Assembly: GCA_963662265.2 (NCBI GenBank) | Contig: CAXXHA010000010.1 | Location: 32,001-96,000 of the forward strand | Direction of reading: 5' to 3' | Source of the DNA: Spirochaetia bacterium | Lineage (GTDB): Bacteria; Spirochaetota; Spirochaetia; CADAEX01 | Length of the DNA stretch: 64,000 nt | In this document: piece after piece, positions 3,367-27,402 of the stretch | Numbering within the stretch: the first letter of the stretch is position 1 | Layout: every line of letters begins with the position of its first letter | The notes under the pieces: model-generated | Database searches by the model: none | What the model was told of the DNA's origin: nothing | What the model saw: the letters and a program-made list of their open reading frames with translations, nothing else | Translations under genes and position numbers: made by a program

Positions 3367-3624
3367 AAAAGGCGCTGCCTCCGGGAATAAACAATTTACA
3401 ATGCACTTAATAATTCAGACATATATAAAGACAGAATAAATTTCTTTCTTTAATTAATTATACAACAGAAAGAGATGATTGACCCACACAGGGAATATTC
3501 TAACCTCTAAATAGAATCGCCATTCTTCATTTTTAACAGTAATTATTATTATTTAAAACATTTTTGAAGAATATTGCTCTCAGTAAGATTATTTGCAGCG
3601 TCAACAACATACAAAAACTTATTT

Positions 3625-4005
3625 TTACAGTAATACAAAATATTTTCCAAACCTCCTGAATAACAGGATACCTGTAAACCCCATCAGGAGATCCATGAAA
3701 CTGAAAGTTCTGGATGGGAATAATATCTGGGAAAACTCTTCCGCAATTATCAGAATCGATGTAAGCAGGAAAGATAAGGAAATATTCTTTTTCATGATAT
3801 ACACCTCTTTTTTATATAAAAAATAATCAAGTAAGATGTAGAAAAATCCATATAAAACAGCATGAGCCAGCCAGTCATAATGAGGTATTCCGGATAAAAG
3901 AAAGAGAGGCAGCCTGCCGATATCTGCCAGTATAATGACCAATACAATCAGAAAACAATAGGGGATAAATATAAATGCTTTTTTCATAATCACTCCATGT
4001 TTCAT
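3625..4005 (-). CDS. VanZ-like small membrane protein
   Basis: DWLAHAVLYG, EEFSQILFPSRTFSFMDL motifs; hydrophobic segments. Confidence 0.75.
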   Translation of the reverse strand: MKHGVIMKKAFIFIPYCFLIVLVIILADIGRLPLFLLSGIPHYDWLAHAVLYGFFYILLDYFLYKKEVYIMKKNISLSFLLTSILIIAEEFSQILFPSRTFSFMDLLMGFTGILLFRRFGKYFVLL

Positions 4006-17871: not shown

Positions 17872-19962
17872 ATGAGACTCAACGTAAAATGGAAGATCCT
17901 TCTTCCGGTAGTATTAATTCTTGTAATCTCCCTGGGAACAGTTACAGGATATTCGTACCTGCTTCAGAAAAAAATGGTGCATGATCTTATGGAAACAACT
18001 GCAGCTGAACAGCTGTCTGAAATAAGCAACATTGTAGAATCTTCAGAAAAACAGATCAGAAATCTTAAAAGTTCTCTCAACAGGAATTACCTGAGAATTG
18101 CAGAAACAATTGCAATAGCTGTCAAGGATGGAAGCAGTATTCTTGAAACAGGAAAAATGACAGAACTTGCAGAAACTGCAGGAATTGATGAAATCCATGT
18201 TACTGATGAAAACGGGATCCTCAGATGGGGAAACAAAACTGGTTTCTACGGATTTGATTTCAATACAAGCGATCAGACACAACCCTTTCTTGCGGGACTG
18301 AAAAATCCCTCCTTCCAGCTTGCCCAGGATCCCCAGCAGAGGGGTACAGACAAGGTCCTTTTTCAGTACATCGGTGTTGGGAGAAAAGACAGACCTGGAA
18401 TAGTACAGATAGGGGTTCAGCCGCTTGAGCTCAACAACCTTCTGGAATCATCATCAATCAGGAACACACTCAAAAACCTCAATATATCAAGGTCAGGTGT
18501 TGTCTATATTATCAATTCTGATGGAACAATTGCTGAAAGCTCTGCAATACTCAATGATAAACATCTTAACCCGGAATTGTGGAATTTCATTAAAAATTCC
18601 GGTAAAGAGGGAAAAGGCATTGTTGAAGACAGGTATGCAGGATTCATGGAAAACGATGATTACATATGGATGGTCACTTACCCGCTTACAGAGTTCACAT
18701 CAGAACTGAACAGCTTCCTTATACATGTCTTTATCATGTTTATTGTGCTTGCAGCAGTATCTGCAGCTGTAATCCTTCTCATTGTAAGCAGGATCACAAA
18801 TCCGCTTAAGAAAGGTGTAACTTTTGCAAACATGATTGCTCAAGGGGACCTCACAGCAGACCTTGAAGTGAATACTTCAGATGAGGTAGGAGTTCTTGCA
18901 TCGACACTCAGGCAGATGGTAGGCAAAATCAGCAACGTGGTGGAAAAAGTAGCAGACACATCACTGACAGTTGCATCAGGCAGCAGGCAGCTGAGCCAGA
19001 ACACTGTAAAAATGGCAGAAGGTACAAGCTCCCAGGCATCAGCAACTGAAGAGGTTTCAGCTTCCATGGAGGAGATGAGCGCGAACATAACCCAGAATGC
19101 GGAAAACGCCGACACAACAGAGAGAATTGCGATGCAGGCAGCAAAAGATGCTGTTGAAAGCAGCAAGTCAGCTAAAAAAGCTGTTGATGCAATGAATGTT
19201 ATAAATGAGAAAATCAGCATTGTGGAAGAGATTGCAAGGCAGACAAATATGCTTGCTCTTAATGCTGCCATAGAAGCTGCCCGGGCAGGGGAGCAGGGAA
19301 AAGGCTTTGCAGTTGTTGCATCTGAAGTCAGGAAACTGGCAGAAAGAAGCCAACAGGCTGCCGGTGAAATAACAGAACTTACCCAGTTGACAAGCGCTTC
19401 AGCAGATGAGACATCTGCAATGCTTAAAAAGCTTGTAGACGGAATTAACCAGACAGCCGAGCTTGTCAGGGAGATAAGTTCGGCAAGCAGGGAGCAGAGC
19501 GGAGGAGTTCAGCAGGTAAACAGGGCAATTCTCCAGCTTGATGAGGTTGTTCAGCAGAACGCATCCTTCTCTGAAGAGATTTCAGCCACAAGCGAGGAGC
19601 TTACAGCGCAGGCTGAATTTCTACAGGAGACTGTTTCCTACTTCAGGATTGATAAATCATCTTCAACAGGGGAAGATGCAGGTCTTCTTCTCCCGGCCGA
19701 AAGAAATGCCGGCAATGGCAGAGCTGCGGAATTAAATACTGCGGGTGTTTCGGCAGGAAGGAAAAGCTCTTCAGGCAGTGCTTCTGTTATAAGGGCTGCC
19801 GGAGCCGGGCAGGTTCGGATCACATCAGGGGCTGCCGGGGCTGCGGGAAAAACAGAAGAAACAGCTGCAGTTTTCAAGGCAGTATCAGCTGCTGAGTCAT
19901 TAAACAACGGAAATCCTTCTGATACTGATTCGATGTCAGATGGAGGGTTTAAGGAGTTTTAG
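17872..19962 (+). CDS. Methyl-accepting chemotaxis protein (Cache-like sensor, HAMP)
   Basis: TM-sensor-TM, [48 protein letters not shown]. Confidence 0.95.
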
Positions 19963-20109
19963 GTGGATCTGAAATTCTTATTTCATGATAATTGCACCAA
20001 GATGATTATGCCGTATAGATAAGAAGCTGCTTATCGGAAATCCGAGAGTACCGGGATTAAGTAACCGGGAAATACAATCAGCTACAGGCTGTGTGCAAAC
20101 TTGAATATT

Positions 20110-20143
20110 AAAAAGGCCTGCTTTGACAAGCAGGTCTTTTTTT
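20110..20143. terminator. Bidirectional intrinsic terminator between the convergent MCP and VOC genes
   Basis: AAAAAGGCCTGCTT-tgac-AAGCAGGTCTTTTTTT. Confidence 0.8.
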
Positions 20144-20153
20144 AAAAGGGATT

Positions 20154-20636
20154 CTACATCCCCATGCTTTCAAGCCATTCCTTTTCATTCTTTTTCATCT
20201 CATCTTCAGTAAGCTTCCACTTATTTGTCGCTATAGCCCAGACATGGCCGAAGGGATCAAGGACTTTCCCCATCCTGTCTCCCCAGAATGCATCCATTAT
20301 TTCATCCACAATTTCAGATCCGTTTTCCACCATTCCATTGTAAACAGCATCACAGTCTTCAACATATATAAACAAGCTCACAGTAGTCCCGTTAATAGCA
20401 CCTTTCTCCACACCTCCCGGATAGGAATCAGCCATCATAAGATTTGTATCCCCAATTCTTATCATTGAATGCATTATCTTATCACTGCCTGGAAAACTGT
20501 AAGGGGGAAAAACAAGTTCCGCCCCCAGCACTTTCCTGTAATATTCAATAGCTTCTGAACAGTTTCCATTAAACCACAGATTAGCTGTTACATTGTTCAT
20601 CCCTTCTGGGACAGGTTTTAATGCTTTTTCAGCCAT
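20154..20636 (-). CDS. VOC/glyoxalase-family protein (PhnB-like)
   Basis: AIEYY..VLGA, IMHS.IRIGD..LMMAD, DAFWGDRMGKVLDPFGHVW. Confidence 0.88.
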   Translation of the reverse strand: MAEKALKPVPEGMNNVTANLWFNGNCSEAIEYYRKVLGAELVFPPYSFPGSDKIMHSMIRIGDTNLMMADSYPGGVEKGAINGTTVSLFIYVEDCDAVYNGMVENGSEIVDEIMDAFWGDRMGKVLDPFGHVWAIATNKWKLTEDEMKKNEKEWLESMGM

Positions 20637-20913
20637 TAAAATTCTCCTTGTATAGAGATCTGTAAGTATGAATAATTAAGCCTTGAATTTTCTGTTTAAA
20701 CACCTGAAACATTTTATACCTTACTTTTATTAATAGTAGTTTCAAAATGATCTGTTTTCAAAAGAAACTCTTACATGAGGCTGTATTTACAATAAATTTT
20801 AATAAAATCAGATATTCTGAAGGCTTTATAAATTAAACAGGACGAAAATTCTTTCTTCAGGACCGGAAGATAATTTCATATTTAAACAAGCAGTGTTTTA
20901 AATATAAAATAAT

Positions 20914-20969
20914 ATCGATATTATTGTATCCAATATTGACATTTTTCTTATTCGATACTATATTATCCA
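20914..20969 (+). promoter_or_regulatory. Array unit 1 promoter with ATCGAT-type operator repeats
   Basis: TTGACA 20936-20941, 17 nt, TATATT 20959-20964; ATCGAT-N8-ATCCAA upstream and TTCGAT-N8-ATCCAT across the -10. Confidence 0.75.
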
Positions 20970-21044
20970 TACAGGTTGGGCAAACAACCTGTAGGTGAAA
21001 ATATTTTGTTTTTGAGAAAATCAAAAATAAAAAAAGAAAATAGA

Positions 21045-21152
21045 ATGTACGAAAGACCTCTGGTAAATGGCAAAATAATATCAGAAATAAGGTCTTTCAA
21101 TAAAAAAACTGCAAATACGTCCGGCAAAACAGTATTTGCAGTTATAATCTAA
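21045..21152 (+). pseudogene. Decayed paralog of the unit-2 47-aa microprotein (MYERPLVNGKIISEIRSFNKKTANTSGKTVFAVII)
   Basis: ERPLVNGK vs ERPFINGK and ANTSGKT vs AEATGKS. Upstream TTGAGAAAATCAAAAATAAAA aligns with TTGAGGAGATCAAAATGAAA of unit 2, with the RBS and ATG altered. Confidence 0.5.
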
Positions 21153-21202
21153 GACTTTTTTATAGATTCCTCCTAACCTTCTAAAAAGAGTTTTATTCAT
21201 GG

Positions 21203-21237
21203 GAACCTGCTGTAAGTTTTACAGCAGGTTCTTTTTT
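21203..21237 (+). terminator. Intrinsic terminator, unit 1
   Basis: GAACCTGCTGTAA-gtt-TTACAGCAGGTTC-TTTTTT. Confidence 0.85.
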
Positions 21238-21309
21238 CATTATTACCTCCTGTAATAATGAGTTGTTATTTATAAAACTGCAGTGAGTTTCACTGCAGTT
21301 TTTCTTTTT
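21238..21309 (+). other. Extra module: hairpin with CTCCT loop followed by a second terminator
   Basis: CATTATTAC-ctcct-GTAATAATG (21238-21260); AAAACTGCAGTGA-gtt-TCACTGCAGTTTT + T-rich tail (21274-21309). Confidence 0.6.
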
Positions 21310-21578
21310 GCTGGCCGTTGCTGCATAAACAGGCTTTTTATACTTATAATTCTGCATTTATTTCACAGACTTATCCGCTGATCACCTGGCAGAAATCTTA
21401 TATTTCCCTATTAACAGCTTTCAAGGACTCTAAAGCTGTTAAACTTATTTCAACAGTGTTTTATCCTCCCGGAATAATTCTAATTATCACGCAGTCTAAA
21501 CACTGTTTTGCCCATATTCCCATATGGAGCCCACCTGTCTACCTATCTAACTACCCAGAACCATGTAGATAAATTTTT

Positions 21579-21635
21579 ATCGATAATTACATATCTTATA
21601 TTGACATTTTTTATTTTCGATAGTATGTTATCGAT
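21579..21635 (+). promoter_or_regulatory. Array unit 2 promoter with ATCGAT-type operator repeats
   Basis: TTGACA 21601-21606, 17 nt, TATGTT 21624-21629; ATCGAT at 21579; TCGATA-gtatgt-TATCGA across the -10. Confidence 0.78.
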
Positions 21636-21676
21636 AGTTAGAGATTGAAATAAATAGTATTTCAAGGAGGACAATT

Positions 21677-21772
21677 ATGTTAGAAATTTTAATTGTAGCT
21701 ATTATAGCAGCTGGTGCAGTTTTTGCATTCATAGAAGACGGTCGTGTTAGTCCTAACGGAATCGACTGGTAA
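21677..21772 (+). CDS. 31-aa single-TM micropeptide MLEILIVAIIAAGAVFAFIEDGRVSPNGIDW
   Basis: AAGGAGG RBS 6 nt upstream; hydrophobic N-terminal helix; clear paralog at 22205-22306 with conserved IAAG...AFIEDG...PN..DW. Confidence 0.75.
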   Translation: MLEILIVAIIAAGAVFAFIEDGRVSPNGIDW

Positions 21773-21803
21773 TCTAGAAAAAACTTGTTTTGAGGAGATC
21801 AAA

Positions 21804-21947
21804 ATGAAAAAAATACTTAGTAAATTATCAGAAAGACCATTTATCAATGGCAAACAGAGACATATTAAAAAAGAAGGCCTTTCAATTAAGGCAGTTGCAG
21901 AAGCAACAGGAAAATCAATTGAATCTGTACTTTCAATGAAATTCTAA
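21804..21947 (+). CDS. 47-aa basic microprotein with an HTH-like C-terminus
   Basis: GAGGAG RBS; GLSIKAVAEATGKSIESV fits the S-x-x-x-[VI]-A-x-x-x-G-x-S-x-x-x-V helix-turn-helix pattern; decayed paralog in unit 1. Confidence 0.6.
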   Translation: MKKILSKLSERPFINGKQRHIKKEGLSIKAVAEATGKSIESVLSMKF

Positions 21948-21991
21948 AACTTCTTTTTAACTTCAAACCTTCTAAATTTTGAGTTTTATTC

Positions 21992-22028
21992 AAAAGACCT
22001 GCTGAGCCGTATACAGCAGGTCTTTTTT
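21992..22028 (+). terminator. Intrinsic terminator, unit 2
   Basis: AAAAGACCTGCTG-agccgtata-CAGCAGGTCTTTTTT; stem core ACCTGCTG/CAGCAGGT shared with the unit 1 terminator. Confidence 0.85.
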
Positions 22029-22105
22029 AATTTTTCAGTGAAAATCATTGATAACCTTTGTTCAGGAAGTAGATAAATAAAAATCATGCATTTTGATAAT
22101 ATATT

Positions 22106-22162
22106 ATCGATAATGCTGTATCCATACTTGACTTTTTCAGTTATCCTTTATACATTATCAAT
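22106..22162 (+). promoter_or_regulatory. Array unit 3 promoter with ATCGAT-type operator repeats
   Basis: TTGACT 22128-22133, 17 nt, TACATT 22151-22156; ATCGAT-N8-ATCCAT upstream, same spacing as units 1 and 2. Confidence 0.72.
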
Positions 22163-22204
22163 AACTTTAAATACGATTTTAATAATCTTGTTAAGGAGGC
22201 CAGC

Positions 22205-22306
22205 ATGTTACTTATCAATACTTTAGTAATCATGGCTATTGCAGCAGGAGTTTTAGCTGCATTCATTGAAGATGGAAAAACAGCACCAAATTGCTGTGAC
22301 TGGTAG
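22205..22306 (+). CDS. 33-aa single-TM micropeptide MLLINTLVIMAIAAGVLAAFIEDGKTAPNCCDW
   Basis: AAGGAGG RBS 5 nt upstream; paralog of 21677-21772 with synonymous codon changes in the shared FIEDG/PN/DW residues. Confidence 0.75.
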   Translation: MLLINTLVIMAIAAGVLAAFIEDGKTAPNCCDW

Positions 22307-22356
22307 AAAGTAGTCTGAAGATTTCAGATACTTGTAAAAACTGAAAACAATCAGTA

Positions 22357-22550
22357 GAAAGGTCTGTAATTTACAACAGGATTAACAATATAGAGAAAGG
22401 AAGACCTTTCACATTACATTCCATGATGCTGCAGCAAAAACAACAGAATCGGCATCCGGAATGTAAAACAAAAGACTTTTTAGATTCCTCCAAAATTCTA
22501 AAAAGAGTTTTATTTCCAGGCCCCGCAGCGTTGCTGAGGGGCCTTTTTTT
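22357..22550 (+). ncRNA. Putative structured RNA / 3' UTR-derived sRNA, array unit 3
   Basis: Stems 22357-22365/22402-22410, 22414-22422/22458-22466 and 22476-22484/22497-22505 with TTCCTCC in the loop; terminator 22518-22550. Confidence 0.6.
22518..22550 (+). terminator. Intrinsic terminator, unit 3
   Basis: AGGCCCC-g-CAGC-gtt-GCTG-a-GGGGCCT + T7. Confidence 0.82.
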
Positions 22551-22685
22551 CCCCCTTTCACGCAAATACCCATTCTCTCGGCAGCTTCATAAGATTTAAT
22601 AATAAAATTCCGCCTCTTGCGATTTATATGCATATCATGCAACTTCAACCATCCAGGTATTTTTACAAAATAATTACAGACTGTA

Positions 22686-22740
22686 TTGACTTTTTCCCTT
22701 TTCGATAGTATTATATCGATAACAAGTTACCGATAACAAG
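22686..22740 (+). promoter_or_regulatory. Array unit 4 promoter (no recognisable ORF follows)
   Basis: TTGACT 22686-22691, 17 nt, TATTAT 22709-22714; TCGATA-gtatta-TATCGA plus direct repeat CGATAACAAG at 22717 and 22731 (14-bp period). Confidence 0.65.
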
Positions 22741-22802
22741 CAATATTTCTGATGGCCAGAAATGTTTGACTTTATAAATACAACTGGAATAAGGCTGGAG
22801 AT

Positions 22803-22834
22803 AAAAAAAATCCCGGATCCGAAGAACCGGGATT
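22803..22834 (-). terminator. Intrinsic terminator of gdhA
   Basis: A-run then ATCCCGG...CCGGGAT stem downstream of the gdhA stop. Confidence 0.8.
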
Positions 22835-22871
22835 TATATAAGCCTAATCAGGCTAAATATAAAACTATATC

Positions 22872-24209
22872 CTAGTAACCGAGATCAAGCATTGCATCTG
22901 CAACTTTCTTGAAACCGGCAATATTAGCACCGTTGATGTAGTTTACAAAACCTGAAGCATCTTTGCCTTCTCTAACACAAGCAGCGTGGATGTCTTTCAT
23001 GATTACTTTGAGTTTTGCATCAACTTCTTCAGATGACCAGTTGTATTTCATTGAGTTCTGGCACATTTCAAGACCTGATACTGCAACACCACCGGCATTA
23101 GCAGCTTTACCAGGACCAAACGGGATCTTGTTTTTAACAAACTCAACTGCAGCATCTGCAGTACAGCCCATGTTGGATGTTTCAACAACATATTTAACAC
23201 CGTTTGAGATAAGAGCTTTTGCATCATCGAGAGTAAGCTCGTTCTGGAAAGCACAGGGGAATGCCATATCAACTTTAAGTTCCCATGGTTTTTTACCTGC
23301 AACAAATTTTGCGCCGAATTTTTCAGCGTAAGGAGCTACAACATCATTGTTGGAAGCTCTGAGCTCAAGCATATAGTCAAATTTTTCTTTTGTATTGATA
23401 CCTGCTTCATCATAGATGTATCCGTCAGGTCCAGAAATTGCCACTACTTTACCACCAAGTTCAGTAGCCTTCATTACAGCACCCCAGGCAACATTACCGA
23501 AACCTGAAACAGCAATTGTTTTGCCTTTCATTGAATCATTGTTTGTTTTGAGCATTTCATCAGCAAAATACATTGTACCAAAACCAGTTGCTTCAGGTCT
23601 TACAAGTGAACCGCCCCAGTTAAGGCCTTTACCTGTGAGTACACCTGTGTTTTCAGCTCTGAGTCTCTTGTACTGACCATACATGAAACCGATTTCTCTT
23701 CCGCCTACTCCGATATCACCTGCAGGAACGTCAGTCTGAGGACCGATATATTTCTGAAGTTCTGTCATGAAACTTCGACAGAATCTCATGATTTCTGCAT
23801 CTGATTTACCTTTAGGATTAAAGTCTGAACCACCTTTACCTCCACCCATTGGGAGAGTAGTAAGACTGTTTTTGAAAATCTGCTCAAATCCGAGGAATTT
23901 AAGAGTTCCGAGAGTAACGCTTGGGTGGAATCTGAGTCCGCCCTTATATGGACCAATAGCGTTGTTAAACTGAACTCTGTAAGCCTTGTTTACCTGTACT
24001 TCACCGTTATCATCTTCCCATTCAACTTTGAACATGAAAGTTCTGTCCGGCTCAGTAATTCTTTCAAGGATTTTTGCATCTACATATGCAGGGTTGTCGT
24101 TAACTACATCAATAATAGATTCAACTACTTCTTTTGCAGCCTGAATAAATTCCGGCTGAGCTGGGTTTTTTCTTTCCAGTTCTGCCATAAATTCGTCAAG
24201 ATTATACAT
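22872..24209 (-). CDS. gdhA: NADP-specific glutamate dehydrogenase
   Basis: GPYKGGLRFHPSV, PMGGGKGGSDF, DVPAGDIGVG, RPEATGFG, KAANAGGVAVSGLEM; AAGGAG RBS before ATG 24209. Confidence 0.96.
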   Translation of the reverse strand: MYNLDEFMAELERKNPAQPEFIQAAKEVVESIIDVVNDNPAYVDAKILERITEPDRTFMFKVEWEDDNGEVQVNKAYRVQFNNAIGPYKGGLRFHPSVTLGTLKFLGFEQIFKNSLTTLPMGGGKGGSDFNPKGKSDAEIMRFCRSFMTELQKYIGPQTDVPAGDIGVGGREIGFMYGQYKRLRAENTGVLTGKGLNWGGSLVRPEATGFGTMYFADEMLKTNNDSMKGKTIAVSGFGNVAWGAVMKATELGGKVVAISGPDGYIYDEAGINTKEKFDYMLELRASNNDVVAPYAEKFGAKFVAGKKPWELKVDMAFPCAFQNELTLDDAKALISNGVKYVVETSNMGCTADAAVEFVKNKIPFGPGKAANAGGVAVSGLEMCQNSMKYNWSSEEVDAKLKVIMKDIHAACVREGKDASGFVNYINGANIAGFKKVADAMLDLGY

Positions 24210-24414
24210 TTCTAACAGCTCCTTAAAACATTTTAATACCACCCCTCAGGGCGGTATTACTTATCTATATATAAAGCCTATTTCTGATATTAATCAAGTA
24301 TTAATATTGGCCTATCTATACATCTATACAAGTTAAATCATGAATATTGTTGATATTTAACATAGTGGTGTATTATTATTAAGAAAACGAACATTCTTTT
24401 TTAAGGAATTTACA

Positions 24415-27402
24415 ATGAATAATCCTCTTGCATCCAAGTTTCATTTCAAGGAAACCCCATTTAAACAGCTTATGGATAAAAGGATAAATGACATACTCCT
24501 TGTATGCAGCAAATATGACAAATTCATGCTTGATGAAGACGGCAGAATTGATGAACAGCTTTTCCAGGAATATGTGTCCCTCAACCTCCGCTATCCTCCC
24601 CGTTTCACACATGTTTCAACAGAGGAAGAAGCTTTTGAAAAGCTCTACACGGAGAATTTCGACCTTGTAATTACAATGCTCAACTTCAAGGGAACACTCG
24701 TTCTTGACCTTGCGGAAAACATAAAAACAGCATATCCCGATATACCTGTAGTTGTATTGAGCCCGTTTTCAAAGGCTATTTCAAAGAAACTTCAGGCTCT
24801 TCAAAATGTCAAGGCAGACTATATTTTCTCATGGCTCGGCAATGCAAGGCTGCTGCTGGCAATTGTAAAACTTATTGAGGATAAAATGAATGTTGAGCAT
24901 GATGTGGAAATCGCAGGTGTTCAGACAATTATTCTTGTAGAAGACTCAATCCGTTACTATTCAAGTTACCTGCCCAACATATACAGGCTTCTTTTCCGGC
25001 AGGCCAGAAGGATTATGGAAGAGGGGTTAAATGAATATCAGCAGAATACAAGGATGAGAGGAAGGCCGAAAATTCTCCTTGCAACTTCCTATGAGGAGGC
25101 TATCGAGCTTTATGAAAAATACAAGAACAATACTCTCGGTGTAATTTCCGATATCGGATATAAACGGGAAGGTGTTGAAGACCCTGTTGCAGGGCTGAAA
25201 CTGAGCAGACTGATTCGGGAGGAAAACACAGATGTTCCCATACTGCTTCAGTCGGCCCAGCTTGACCTTAAGGAGGAGGCCTCCACATATAACGCATCCT
25301 TTATCTACAAGCACTCTGAGACCCTGCTTAAAGAGCTGAGAGACTATATCAAAGACAATTACGGCTTCGGAGACTTTATATTCAAAGACCCTGAAGGGAT
25401 GACTCTTGAAAAGGCGAGAAACCTCAAAGAGCTTCAGGAAAAACTCGCAATTGTTCCAAACTATTCTGTCGAACACCATATCAGACAGAACCACTTTTCA
25501 AAGTGGATGAGGGCAAGAGCGCTTTTTACACTTGCAGAAATTTTCAAGCCTATCCAGCTCAAGGATTTTGACGGGTCTCTTCTTGAGACAAAAAAGTATC
25601 TTATTGAAATTATCAAGCTCTACAGAAAACAGACCGGAAAGGGTTCAATCGCAAGTTTTGACAACAACAGGTTTGATGATTTTACATCATTCGCAAGAAT
25701 CGGGGACGGTTCACTCGGGGGAAAAGCAAGAGGTCTCGCTTTCATTGATAATATAATTAAAAGGCATGACCTTCTGTTCAAATACAAGAACATAACAATC
25801 AGTATCCCTAAAACAATTGTTCTTTCAACATCTGTCTTTGAAGATTTCATGGACCTAAACAACCTGTACAGTACAGCTCACTCAATAAAAACAGACAAGC
25901 TTATGTTAAACGCGTTTCTCCAGGCGGAACTGCCGGAATATATGCATGAATATATAAAAACAATCCTGACTGTAGTAACCAGGCCTATTGCAGTAAGATC
26001 ATCCAGTCTTCTCGAAGACTCACTCTACCAGCCTTTTGCGGGAGTTTATGCAACATACATGCTTCCAAACAACAACGAAGACCTTAAAATCAGGTGTCTT
26101 CAGCTGGAACAGGCTGTAAAAAGTGTTTTTGCATCAACATATTCCAGAAAAAGCAAGGCATATATTTCTGCAACAAAAAATGTAATTGACGAGGAAAAAA
26201 TGGGTGTAATAATCCAGGAAGTGACCGGACAGGAGCATGACGGGTATTTCTATCCCGATTTTGCAGGAGTTGCCAGATCATACAACTACTACCCTCTTCC
26301 TAATGAAAAAACTGAAGAGGGGATAGCAGATATTGCTCTGGGGCTTGGTAAGACTGTTGTTGAGGGGGGAACAGGCCTGAGATTTTCACCTTCCCATCCA
26401 AAAAAAAACATAATGTTTTCTTCAGTTGATACTGCCCTCAAATCAAGCCAGAAAGTTTTTCACGCCCTGGACTTAAGCCCGTACAGTTTTACTCCTTCGA
26501 TAGACCAGGAGGAAAATATTCCCCGTCTGGATATTGACAGGGCATTTGAAAACCCGACATTCAAGTATATCGGATCTACATATGACATGCAGAACAATGC
26601 AATCAAGGACACAGTAAATGCTCAGGGAAAGAAAATTGTTACATTTGCCGGAATTCTCAAGTACAAAATGTTTCCCATTGCAGACATACTCAAGGAACTA
26701 CTTGCAATAGGTCATGAATCAATGCAGTGCCCTGTTGAAATTGAATTTGCTGTCAATTTAAGCCCGAATCCTGAAATACCGCACAAATTCAGCTTTCTTC
26801 AGATCAGGCCGATAGTAGAAGGGCTTGAAGCGATTGACCTCAATATCAACAACTACACAAAAGAAGATAAAATTATCCATTCAGATAAAGCCCTCGGAAA
26901 CGGAAAATATGAACAAATTCATGATTTTGTTTATATAAAACATGAAAGCTTTGATCCTGCACATACCCAGACTATGGCAGATACCCTGGACAGGATAAAC
27001 AACCAGTTTATTGAAGAAGACAGGAACTATATTCTCGAAGTTCCGGGCAGGCTGGGATCATCAGATCCGTGGCTGGGTATTCCTGTAAGCTGGGCCCAGA
27101 TATGCAATGCAAGGGTAATCATAGAATCCGGTCTTGAAAATTTCCAGGTTGAACCAAGCCAGGGGACCCACTTCTTCCACAATATAACTTCACTGAATAT
27201 TGCCTACTTCACAATCAACCCGTTTTATAAAGACGGATTTATCAACCTTGACTTCCTTAAAGAAGCAGAGGCTGTTTACGAGGATGAATTTATAAGACAC
27301 ATAAGGTTTGAAAAAACAATAAAGGTATTTGTTGACGGCAAGGACAGAAAAGGAATTATACTGAAACCGGGAGTAGGCGCTATTGATATGATGAACCTTT
27401 AA
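24415..27402 (+). CDS. Receiver-domain + PEP/pyruvate-binding (PPDK_N) fusion protein
   Basis: Two REC-like regions (FDLVITM; LGVISDI), then GGKARGLAF, AVRSSSLLEDS...FAG, GLGKTVVEG, PVEIEFA, FLQIRP; no His-swivel or pyruvate-binding barrel recognised. Confidence 0.82.
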   Translation: MNNPLASKFHFKETPFKQLMDKRINDILLVCSKYDKFMLDEDGRIDEQLFQEYVSLNLRYPPRFTHVSTEEEAFEKLYTENFDLVITMLNFKGTLVLDLAENIKTAYPDIPVVVLSPFSKAISKKLQALQNVKADYIFSWLGNARLLLAIVKLIEDKMNVEHDVEIAGVQTIILVEDSIRYYSSYLPNIYRLLFRQARRIMEEGLNEYQQNTRMRGRPKILLATSYEEAIELYEKYKNNTLGVISDIGYKREGVEDPVAGLKLSRLIREENTDVPILLQSAQLDLKEEASTYNASFIYKHSETLLKELRDYIKDNYGFGDFIFKDPEGMTLEKARNLKELQEKLAIVPNYSVEHHIRQNHFSKWMRARALFTLAEIFKPIQLKDFDGSLLETKKYLIEIIKLYRKQTGKGSIASFDNNRFDDFTSFARIGDGSLGGKARGLAFIDNIIKRHDLLFKYKNITISIPKTIVLSTSVFEDFMDLNNLYSTAHSIKTDKLMLNAFLQAELPEYMHEYIKTILTVVTRPIAVRSSSLLEDSLYQPFAGVYATYMLPNNNEDLKIRCLQLEQAVKSVFASTYSRKSKAYISATKNVIDEEKMGVIIQEVTGQEHDGYFYPDFAGVARSYNYYPLPNEKTEEGIADIALGLGKTVVEGGTGLRFSPSHPKKNIMFSSVDTALKSSQKVFHALDLSPYSFTPSIDQEENIPRLDIDRAFENPTFKYIGSTYDMQNNAIKDTVNAQGKKIVTFAGILKYKMFPIADILKELLAIGHESMQCPVEIEFAVNLSPNPEIPHKFSFLQIRPIVEGLEAIDLNINNYTKEDKIIHSDKALGNGKYEQIHDFVYIKHESFDPAHTQTMADTLDRINNQFIEEDRNYILEVPGRLGSSDPWLGIPVSWAQICNARVIIESGLENFQVEPSQGTHFFHNITSLNIAYFTINPFYKDGFINLDFLKEAEAVYEDEFIRHIRFEKTIKVFVDGKDRKGIILKPGVGAIDMMNL

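Follow-up and report, generated by a model that had tools for sequence, protein, structure and literature searches.

Conserved hairpins with an open anti-Shine-Dalgarno loop at the 3' ends of tandem small-gene units in a Spirochaetia bacterium

What could a hairpin do that holds the ribosome's anti-Shine-Dalgarno (anti-SD) letters open in its loop just ahead of a transcription terminator, and on which messages would it act? The question is raised by three tandem plus-strand units in a 64,000-nucleotide (nt) stretch of DNA from an uncultured Spirochaetia bacterium (GenBank assembly GCA_963662265.2, contig CAXXHA010000010.1), referred to here as the window (G000:C10:32001-96000; the genome, G000, is 90.6% complete). 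The units lie between a glyoxalase/VOC gene and the convergent gdhA, and an initial annotation had singled out UUCCUCC-bearing stem-loops at the ends of the first and third of them. The locus was compared with its versions in G001 and G002, which are the other two genomes of the genus, and in a related metagenome contig, L047. The flagged blocks form the 3' ends of paralogous transcription units arranged in tandem, and the displayed anti-SD seed may act on the cluster's own ribosome-binding sites (RBSs). A probability of about 0.45 is assigned to this reading, in which the pairing, its effect and its targets are inferred.

Sequence, fold and strand of the hairpins

The two TTCCTCC blocks are found on the plus strand where they had been placed, at 21167-21173 in unit 1 and 22485-22491 in unit 3. 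The unit 3 block reads as described, with CTTTTTAGA (22476-22484), ttcctccaaaat (22485-22496) and TCTAAAAAG (22497-22505) in succession. Both blocks form the loops of A/U-rich hairpins immediately upstream of intrinsic terminators. The features of the 3' ends are as follows.

20971..21238, plus strand: unit 1 RNA of ~268 nt, a candidate small RNA (sRNA) without an open reading frame (ORF)
21150..21198, plus strand: unit 1 anti-SD hairpin, ~16-bp stem and 13-nt loop UUCCUCCUAACCU
21201..21238, plus strand: unit 1 intrinsic terminator, stem 21201-21233, 15 bp
21238..21260, plus strand: second C-rich hairpin, after the unit 1 terminator, CATTATTAC-CTCCT-GTAATAATG, with CCTCC at 21246-21250 in the loop
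21274..21310, plus strand: second unit 1 terminator, with two compensatory pair changes in G001
21948..22029, plus strand: degenerate 3' module of unit 2, CCUCC lost and CCUUC at 21968-21972, followed by a terminator
22468..22516, plus strand: unit 3 anti-SD hairpin, stem CUUUUUAGA / UCUAAAAAG, 12-nt loop UUCCUCCAAAAU holding TTCCTCC
22519..22550, plus strand: unit 3 intrinsic terminator, GGCCCC...GGGGCC stem and T-run

In addition to TTCCTCC, the unit 1 loop carries ACCTTCT at 21176-21182, and the unit 1 hairpin scores 62.8 bits with the covariance model described below. Folding of the last 115 nt of ten paralogous units from four genomes placed CCUCC in a hairpin loop in all eight units that bear the motif; CCUCC is absent from unit 2 of the window and unit 2 of G001, both of which retain CCUUC. 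Folding of the whole transcripts resulted in an unpaired probability of the motif of 0.99-1.0 in unit 1 and 0.82-0.86 in unit 3, with a cost of 0.0-0.3 kcal/mol for opening it. Burial of the loop in the native fold had been named as an outcome that would speak against a regulatory role; the folding predicts accessible loops instead (unpaired 0.82-1.0). In line with sRNAs of the C-rich-loop class, unit 1 has a predicted promoter, an intrinsic terminator and no ORF, and the motif is unpaired in its loop and conserved while the stems vary.

The stems differ among the paralogues (CUUUUUAGA/UCUAAAAAG compared with AGGUU/AACCU), and that of G001 unit 3 is preserved by changes from U-A to U.G and from A-U to G.U. 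These changes would be mismatches on the other strand, so the hairpin is a plus-strand RNA. The same strand is indicated by the T-runs, which follow the stems on the plus strand only, and by the terminator stems with their compensatory changes, which in the unit 1 terminator include a T-A to C-G exchange with respect to G001 and L047. Because the hairpin does not vary among the unit 1 orthologues, covariation can come only from the paralogues and the terminators. Because MAFFT misregistered two paralogues and four spurious rows entered a model-made alignment, the folds of individual sequences were relied on in place of alignment-based pair counts. A comparison of positions 19500-24500 with Rfam on both strands (cmscan, E up to 10) yielded 32 weak matches that all fell far short of their gathering scores; over the hairpins, PyrR (25.9 bits, gathering score 54) and VrrA (19.5, gathering score 50) scored highest.

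Two candidates on the minus strand were rejected. GGAGGAA as a minus-strand SD has no start codon in range, and the minus-strand ORFs (MNKTLFRR... and others) are not conserved. A minus-strand RNA with GGA loops that would act as a CsrA sponge is at odds with T-runs and promoters found on the plus strand only and with G.U changes that fit the plus strand.

Two further observations concern C-rich sequences of this genome. The loop region AGAUUCCUCCUAACCUUCUAA of unit 1 (21164-21185) resembles the 3' tail of the organism's own 16S rRNA, GGAUCACCUCCUUUCUAAG (G000:C24:43036 and copies), and the likeness extends beyond the CCUCC core to GAU before it and UUCUAA after it, with a required insertion of 4 nt. 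Outside the window, at ~3385-3480 of G000:C20 (minus strand), an intergenic region contains a hairpin whose loop is C-rich, AATATAGTT-CCCCTCCCAGT-TAACTATATT, and behind it a smaller hairpin and a strong terminator, which makes it a candidate for a separate C-rich sRNA.

Conservation of the modules

The initial annotation had described these blocks as the best conserved part of the units. This holds for unit 1, whose hairpin is identical to that of G001 at 49 of 49 positions and nearly so to those of L047 and G002, with no variation in its core across the four genomes. It does not hold for unit 3, where 35 of 49 positions (71%) agree with G001, fewer than in the unit 3 ORF (84%), and the loop motif and the pairing are preserved. 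Elsewhere the identity between the window and G001 is 82-87% in the ORFs, 77-90% in the promoters, ~40% in the unit bodies and 23% in the spacer between units 1 and 2, at a synonymous divergence (pS) of 0.36-0.44; the second C-rich hairpin after unit 1 is identical at 23 of 25 positions. These comparisons indicate that the loops are under strong selection. Unit 2 has lost CCTCC, as was noticed earlier, and retains ACCTTCT (21967-21973) and GAGTTTTATTC; since only 20 of 48 positions (42%) of its 3' module agree with G001, that module is decaying.

Counts of the motif in the window carry less information. The 10-mer AGATTCCTCC occurs twice where 0.20 occurrences are expected, a number reached in none of 100 shuffles, and with one mismatch allowed it occurs four times where 6.5 are expected, which is not above chance. 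A strict terminator scan yielded 401 sites, 10 of them with CCTCC at most 70 nt upstream; as neither the first unit 1 terminator nor the unit 3 terminator was among them, the scan serves as a rough background only. Such counts are weak evidence by themselves, so the argument depends on conservation among relatives.

History of the units

The units can be compared through their small ORFs, a family of ~47 amino acids (aa) that resembles helix-turn-helix (HTH) proteins and, in some units, a preceding micropeptide. In the window these are as follows.

21664..21772, plus strand: unit 2 micropeptide, SD AAGGAGG (GGAGG 21666-21670), 31-aa ORF 21677-21772
21788..21804, plus strand: hairpin around the HTH SD, UUUUGA-GGAGA-UCAAAA, SD in the loop, the last A being the A of the start codon
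21804..21947, plus strand: 47-aa HTH-like ORF, the sole intact copy in the window
22193..22306, plus strand: unit 3 micropeptide, SD AAGGAGG (GGAGG 22195-22199), 33-aa ORF 22205-22306

When 61 related genomes were searched at the DNA level, the locus turned up in the other two members of the genus; further short matches had E values of 1.6e-4 to 7e-3, and only G001 and G002 are convincing. The search of metagenome contigs resulted in three loci, of which L047 alone is a true relative and constitutes a fourth version of the locus, and a search of genome contigs resulted in two loci. Among 401 genomes of the class, a profile of the HTH-like ORF is confined to the three genomes of the genus, apart from weak matches to HTH segments of longer ORFs in six more genomes. 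The covariance model, built from eight hairpins, yielded five matches at E <= 4e-5 in 101 related genomes, all at this locus, and three further marginal ones (E ~0.02 to 0.03). No further copies were detected in the window's own genome by blastn, tblastn, DNA search or covariance model.

The hairpin module stands at the 3' end of eight of the ten paralogous units of the four related Spirochaetia genomes. G001 carries three units as in the window, adjoining gdhA. G002 has a single unit, consisting of a promoter, a 48-aa ORF with the SD GAGGAGAUC, the TTCCTCC hairpin and a terminator, and lacks the micropeptide. L047 has three units; the first contains an intact ORF and the same hairpin as unit 1 of the window, and units 2 and 3 contain micropeptides and the variant hairpins AAGGUU-CCUCCA-AACCUU and AGGUU-CCUCC-AACCU, so that unit 2 of L047 still carries CCUCC. 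Where the HTH-like ORF is intact (G002; L047 units 1 and 2), the module begins at its stop codon. Comparison of the four versions indicates that the ancestral unit is made up of a promoter, the ~47-aa HTH-like ORF, the anti-SD hairpin and a terminator.

Units 1 and 3 of the window are copies in which the small ORF has decayed. In unit 1 there is no SD and no start codon at the position used by the family, and deletions are present; the ORF is decayed in G001 as well. The window therefore holds a hairpin without an ORF in unit 1, both ORFs and a decaying hairpin in unit 2, and a micropeptide and a hairpin in unit 3. The anti-SD sequence lies in the 3' untranslated region (UTR) of an ORF's own transcript in unit 3 of the window, in the G002 unit and in L047 units 1-3, and not in unit 1 of the window. 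The combination of a perfect module in unit 1 and a decaying one in unit 2 suggests that duplication was followed by a division of labour. This evolutionary pattern, in which unit 1 keeps the module and the two-ORF unit 2 loses it, is the most telling evidence that the comparison offers.

Decayed copies also retain or improve internal stems. A unit 1 hairpin at 21108-21142 differs from its coding version in L047 by compensatory changes. Within the small ORF, the ERP codons (GAAAGACC) are able to pair with the GLS codons (GGUCUUUC), at 21050-21098, 21830-21882 and 22357-22412; the GAAAG..CUUUC stem is kept in the decayed copies and in L047 unit 3 (~3970-3990) shrinks to GAAAGG-GAAA-CCUUUC. Its retention after decay suggests a role at the RNA level within the coding region. 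In L047 the small ORF of unit 2 (P0009, 3215-3355) contains two compensating frameshifts across the ERP...GLS segment, which may be genuine or may stem from the assembly.

Small ORFs and their Shine-Dalgarno sequences

The ratio of nonsynonymous to synonymous divergence (pN/pS) with respect to G001 is 0.26 for the unit 2 micropeptide, 0.16 for that of unit 3 and 0.20 for the 47-aa ORF, values which indicate that both ORF families are real and that the micropeptides are under purifying selection. The micropeptides comprise one hydrophobic helix and an acidic tail, share a conserved IAAG...EDG..P...DW pattern with CC in some members, and are putative membrane peptides. A search of 1.84 billion proteins turned up six small cluster representatives of this family, which so far has been seen in the present clade alone. 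The SD of the HTH-like ORF lies in a hairpin loop, and in L047 unit 2 the corresponding stem reads UUUUAA...UUAAAA, a compensatory change from G-C to A-U.

None of the three ORFs matched Pfam or NCBIfam, and nine proteins of 39-48 aa match the 47-aa ORF in 5.8 billion sequences. The AlphaFold2 model of the 47-aa protein (pLDDT 77) ends in a pair of helices with an HTH-like arrangement. There was no Foldseek match at E <= 0.001 and the sequence search of the Protein Data Bank (PDB) was not significant; the weak top rows of the Foldseek search were HTH DNA-binding domains aligned over 25-27 residues. The N-terminal ERPxING bears a tentative likeness to the minor-groove arm of the Hin/resolvase DNA-binding domains.

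Pairing with the cluster's own ribosome-binding sites

From the sequence, strand, fold, loop accessibility, conservation and history of the modules, we infer pairing with SDs, the repression that would follow and the choice of target SDs. A unit consists of a promoter flanked by the palindrome TATCGATA, in some cases a 31-33-aa micropeptide, the 47-aa HTH-like ORF, which is decayed in units 1 and 3 of the window, the hairpin and the terminator. The hairpin is predicted to hold a copy of the ribosome's anti-SD letters open as a pairing seed, which may pair with the strong SDs of the cluster's small ORFs and thereby lower translation and mRNA stability. As the SD of the HTH-like ORF is itself displayed in a hairpin loop, a loop-loop contact is possible. 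In the one-unit form of G002 the module lies in the 3' UTR of the mRNA it would control, which suggests action in cis. In the window, unit 1, without an ORF and with its module unchanged, may act in trans as an sRNA, unit 2 would be the mRNA copy with a decaying module, and unit 3 a mixed copy with both micropeptide and module.

Several results are consistent with this proposal. The loop sequence UUCCUCC is complementary to the SDs of the cluster, AAGGAGG of both micropeptides and GAGGAG of the HTH-like ORF. In the minimum free energy (MFE) folds, the micropeptide SD is paired with the 3' C-rich motif in five of six micropeptide units, and removal of the 3' 100 nt in silico lowered the cost of opening the SD in four of the six. 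The accessibility-corrected energy of the unit 1 loop is -6.0 kcal/mol with the micropeptide SD of unit 2 and -5.0 kcal/mol with that of unit 3.

Other results weigh against it. In unit 3, the unit flagged initially, the ensemble leaves the hairpin closed and the loop free, with 0.63 expected SD-anti-SD pairs, and the SD of this unit is not freed in silico by truncation or by mutation of the motif, either in the window or in G001. The energies of the 5'-3' duplexes are no better than those of shuffled sequences, with 35 to 136 of 200 shuffles reaching the observed value in the eight units, and the predicted trans energy with the HTH SD is approximately zero (-0.4 and 0.1 kcal/mol). These energies come from nearest-neighbour models, in which an intramolecular loop-loop kissing contact is a pseudoknot and cannot be scored. 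The complementarity to the cluster SDs extends over only 5-8 bp and is unspecific, as these SDs rank 7,063, 9,705 and 9,706 among 21,345 GGAG sites. No covariation was found between the flanks of the SDs and those of the anti-SD sequences. Finally, invariance over 49 nt exceeds the needs of a 5-nt seed and its stem, which hints at a further partner of the unit 1 hairpin, either a protein or a longer target; none was found. The exchange of GAUC for GAUU in L047 unit 2, considered as an anti-SD covariation, is explained by the SD hairpin's own stem.

The suggestion that the loops repress the micropeptides in cis draws partial support from the MFE pairing in five of six units; the unit 3 ensemble, the in silico mutants of unit 3 and the shuffles speak against it. 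The alternative suggestion of gdhA or a wider regulon as the target finds no support, as the gdhA SD ranks 14,071 of 21,345 and no site stands out. No trans target is distinguished among the 21,345 GGAG sites or among 5,040 SD-led ORF starts, whose scores are distributed smoothly; the top-ranked GGAG sites lie mostly inside coding regions or are simply G-rich, and the VOC gene is not supported as a target either. An accessibility scan selected long A/U duplexes whose net energy was positive and was of no help. Since a 5-nt seed is not scorable by the ranking of GGAG sites, a wide regulon may still exist. With the genome 90.6% complete, a target could also be missing from the assembly.

Promoters and operator boxes

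Each unit begins with a conserved promoter and ends with an intrinsic terminator. The three -35 boxes lie at 20936, 21601 and 22128; a fourth promoter, an orphan, has its -35 box at 22686. Promoters and transcription starts are predictions, and the start of unit 1 was placed from its -10 box. The promoters and the neighbouring genes are as follows.

20154-20636, minus strand: glyoxalase/VOC gene (Pfam Glyoxalase)
20904..20970, plus strand: promoter 1, -35 TTGACA at 20936, -10 TATATT ending at 20964
21566..21635, plus strand: promoter 2, -35 at 21601, TATCGATA boxes at 21578 and 21629
22092..22162, plus strand: promoter 3, -35 at 22128, TATCGATA box at 22105
22872-24242, convergent with the units: gdhA

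Promoter 1 matches 11 of 12 consensus positions, and is 82% identical to its counterpart in G001; one TATCGATA box lies at 20913, and another, degenerate, overlaps the -10. Five of the seven copies of this palindrome in the 64-kb window fall inside the 2-kb stretch of the units (20913, 21578, 21629, 22105 and 22714), where they flank all unit promoters. Boxes on either side of a promoter are also present at the genome's rex gene (Pfam Put_DNA-bind_N and CoA_binding; G000:C1:262118/262169) and at an operon for a 2Fe-2S thioredoxin-like protein and an Fe-only hydrogenase (G000:C1:273761/273820). G001 retains the boxes at both of these loci, and G002 retains them at rex. The genome contains 102 copies, 35 of them outside long ORFs, and several of the latter adjoin redox genes, namely those for a Zn alcohol dehydrogenase, a flavin reductase and a C_GCAxxG_C_C protein. 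The palindrome is probably the operator of a small redox regulon, with Rex and the 47-aa protein as candidate binders. The box has no evident likeness to the Rex operator, and a literature search for a spirochaete Rex motif gave nothing relevant among the papers listed.

The fourth promoter and operator copy (22654-22870) has no unit behind it, is aimed into the 3' end of gdhA and is absent from G001. The sequence downstream of it resembles the 5' flank of the G002 locus, so that it is probably a partial duplicate. The gdhA leader (24234-24335, minus strand) contains a terminator-like hairpin (24259-24234) directly before the SD and, further upstream, a direct repeat, TGTATAGA-TGTATAGA; hairpin and repeat could be an attenuator or an operator.

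A broader, doubtful scenario would join the operator to the unit history. A duplicated coding transcript with an anti-SD sequence in its 3' UTR would have split its two jobs, with unit 1 as riboregulator and unit 2 as mRNA, and the array would belong to the operator regulon of rex and the Fe-hydrogenase. If this were true, a C-rich regulator like RoxS would have evolved independently in these Spirochaetia from the 3' end of a gene and would also gate membrane micropeptides.

Alternative explanations

The hairpins, that of unit 1 above all, might instead be the seed of a global trans-acting C-rich sRNA, an analogue of RoxS/RsaE that would exert redox or fermentative control through the TATCGATA boxes. 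Unit 1 has the composition for it: it lacks an ORF, its promoter and terminator enclose an open C-rich loop and a U-rich spacer, and it has up to three C-rich motifs (UUCCUCC, ACCUUCU and the CCUCC of the second hairpin). The invariance of the whole module would suit a seed with many targets. The two-sided promoter architecture recurs, conserved, at rex and the Fe-only-hydrogenase operon, and single boxes lie near the Zn alcohol dehydrogenase and other redox genes; in B. subtilis, RoxS is a C-rich sRNA repressed by Rex (PMC5419742). Against this stand the lack of an outstanding target among the GGAG sites and SD-led starts, gdhA at its rank of 14,071 included, and the restriction of the element to one locus in one genus (the five strong matches in 101 genomes). 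The box, moreover, shows no evident likeness to the Rex operator. An sRNA of global reach is judged unlikely. A similarly low probability is given to the hairpin being mainly a protein-binding or processing element whose CCUCC is read by a protein, be it an element for RNase III or 3'-end stability, a decoy that mimics the 16S tail, or the place where a chaperone or the 47-aa protein binds. Fixation of all 49 nt of unit 1, stem and loop alike and without covariation, is typical of sequence-specific recognition, the ~16-bp stem is long enough for a double-strand RNase, and the resemblance of AGAUUCCUCCUAACCUUCUAA to GGAUCACCUCCUUUCUAAG goes beyond the core (GAU, CCUCCU, UUCUAA). However, the paralogues (L047 units 2 and 3; G001 unit 3) vary stem and flanks freely and keep UUCCUCC, which fits a seed better, no partner protein was identified, and the 16S likeness, with its 4-nt insertion, could be due to chance.

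Kinship with type I toxin-antitoxin systems, which the initial annotation had brought up, stands as an analogy only. As a special case of action on the cluster's own RBSs, such a system would make the unit 1 RNA the antitoxin and the micropeptides membrane toxins, with 5'-3' folding to silence the toxin mRNAs. The small hydrophobic peptides under selection (31-33 aa, hydrophobic helix, acidic tail, pN/pS 0.16-0.26), their tandem copies, their very strong SDs and the pairing of the SD with the 3' end in five of six MFE folds all agree with such a system, as does the full-length AapA1 mRNA, inert through a long-distance 5'-3' interaction (PMC5416894). Yet the only minus-strand promoter-like site, inside unit 2, is by eye not kept in G001, and unit 1 shares with the messages merely 5-9 nt of anti-SD complementarity, short of what defines an antisense antitoxin. 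The anti-SD module is also older than the micropeptides, as G002 has the module and the HTH-like ORF and no micropeptide, and the conserved EDG...P...DW tail suggests a specific function; a toxin-antitoxin pair is quite improbable. It is hardly credible that the motif is a relic of decayed gene copies, a chance occurrence or the reverse complement of a minus-strand RBS. Units 1 and 3 are indeed decayed copies of coding units, and most other plus-strand TTCCTCC sites in the window (11 of 13) could be minus-strand SDs, but identity at 49 of 49 positions despite a pS of ~0.4, stem changes compatible with the plus strand only, the lack of a start codon after GGAGGAA on the minus strand and the unconserved minus-strand ORFs speak against it.

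Comparison with known systems

With an anti-SD seed acting on the cluster's own RBSs as the preferred reading, one likeness is to control from the 3' UTR. In Staphylococcus aureus, the mRNA of icaR, a small transcription regulator, reportedly carries a C-rich anti-SD sequence in its 3' UTR that can pair with its own SD and lower translation. Pairing between 3' and 5' UTRs of icaR and hbs is cited in a preprint (PMC12697547), which describes for B. subtilis anti-SD-like sequences hundreds of nt downstream that pair with the RBS and inhibit expression. The present locus is similar in having a C-rich anti-SD sequence in the 3' UTR of an mRNA for a small putative regulator, where it could pair with the SD of that mRNA. 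It is unlike icaR in that UUCCUCC lies in the 12-13-nt loop of a conserved hairpin, that the units are in tandem and one copy has no ORF, and that the folding models show no stable cis pairing in unit 3.

Among the trans-acting C-rich RNAs, RoxS is tied to the redox state through its repression by Rex (PMC5419742). The hairpins share with RoxS/RsaE of the Firmicutes the C-rich loop regions facing G-rich RBSs, and their promoters share an operator architecture with rex and the hydrogenase; they differ in having no Rfam match, in deriving from the 3' end of a coding unit, in being confined to one genus and in that no regulon was found. C-rich or anti-SD loops are well documented as RBS-pairing seeds, among them the CCUCCUCCC loops of the cuckoo/CcsR hairpins (PMC4615179) and the C-rich loops of the 6C sRNA (PMC6486639). 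As in cuckoo, CcsR and alpha-r14 of the Alphaproteobacteria and 6C of the Actinobacteria, the hairpins are modular, with anti-SD-like loops and varying stems, and often present in several copies. Unlike the cuckoo family, the loop contains UUCCUCC in place of CCUCCUCCC, a single hairpin per unit follows an ORF where the cuckoo RNAs are stand-alone and multi-hairpin, and the phylum is another.

The full-length aapA1 mRNA is inert through the 5'-3' interaction and activated by 3' trimming (PMC5416894). Unlike hok and aapA1, no overlapping antisense antitoxin was found at the present locus, and the module also occurs without the micropeptide (G002). Dual-function RNAs such as RNAIII/hld, SR1/SR1P and SgrS/SgrT combine a small protein and a base-pairing region in one transcript, whereas here the two functions appear to be split among paralogous copies.

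If the proposed action is correct, the locus would add a new family of anti-SD regulators in the spirochaetes, where regulation by RNA is little charted, and would be a natural example of a 3' UTR control element of a small gene that became a free-standing sRNA after tandem duplication. The intermediates are preserved in four genomes as a one-unit form, a complete three-unit form and a three-unit form with divided work. If it is wrong, what remains is another conserved C-rich hairpin. The defined start sites and the 13-nt loop make the locus suitable for weighing anti-SD control in cis against that in trans. The kind of RNA control is known, and the hairpin is a new family of that kind, with no match in Rfam. 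What sets this locus apart is that the hairpin appears to have arisen from the 3' end of a very small coding unit and that its functions appear to be divided among tandem copies.

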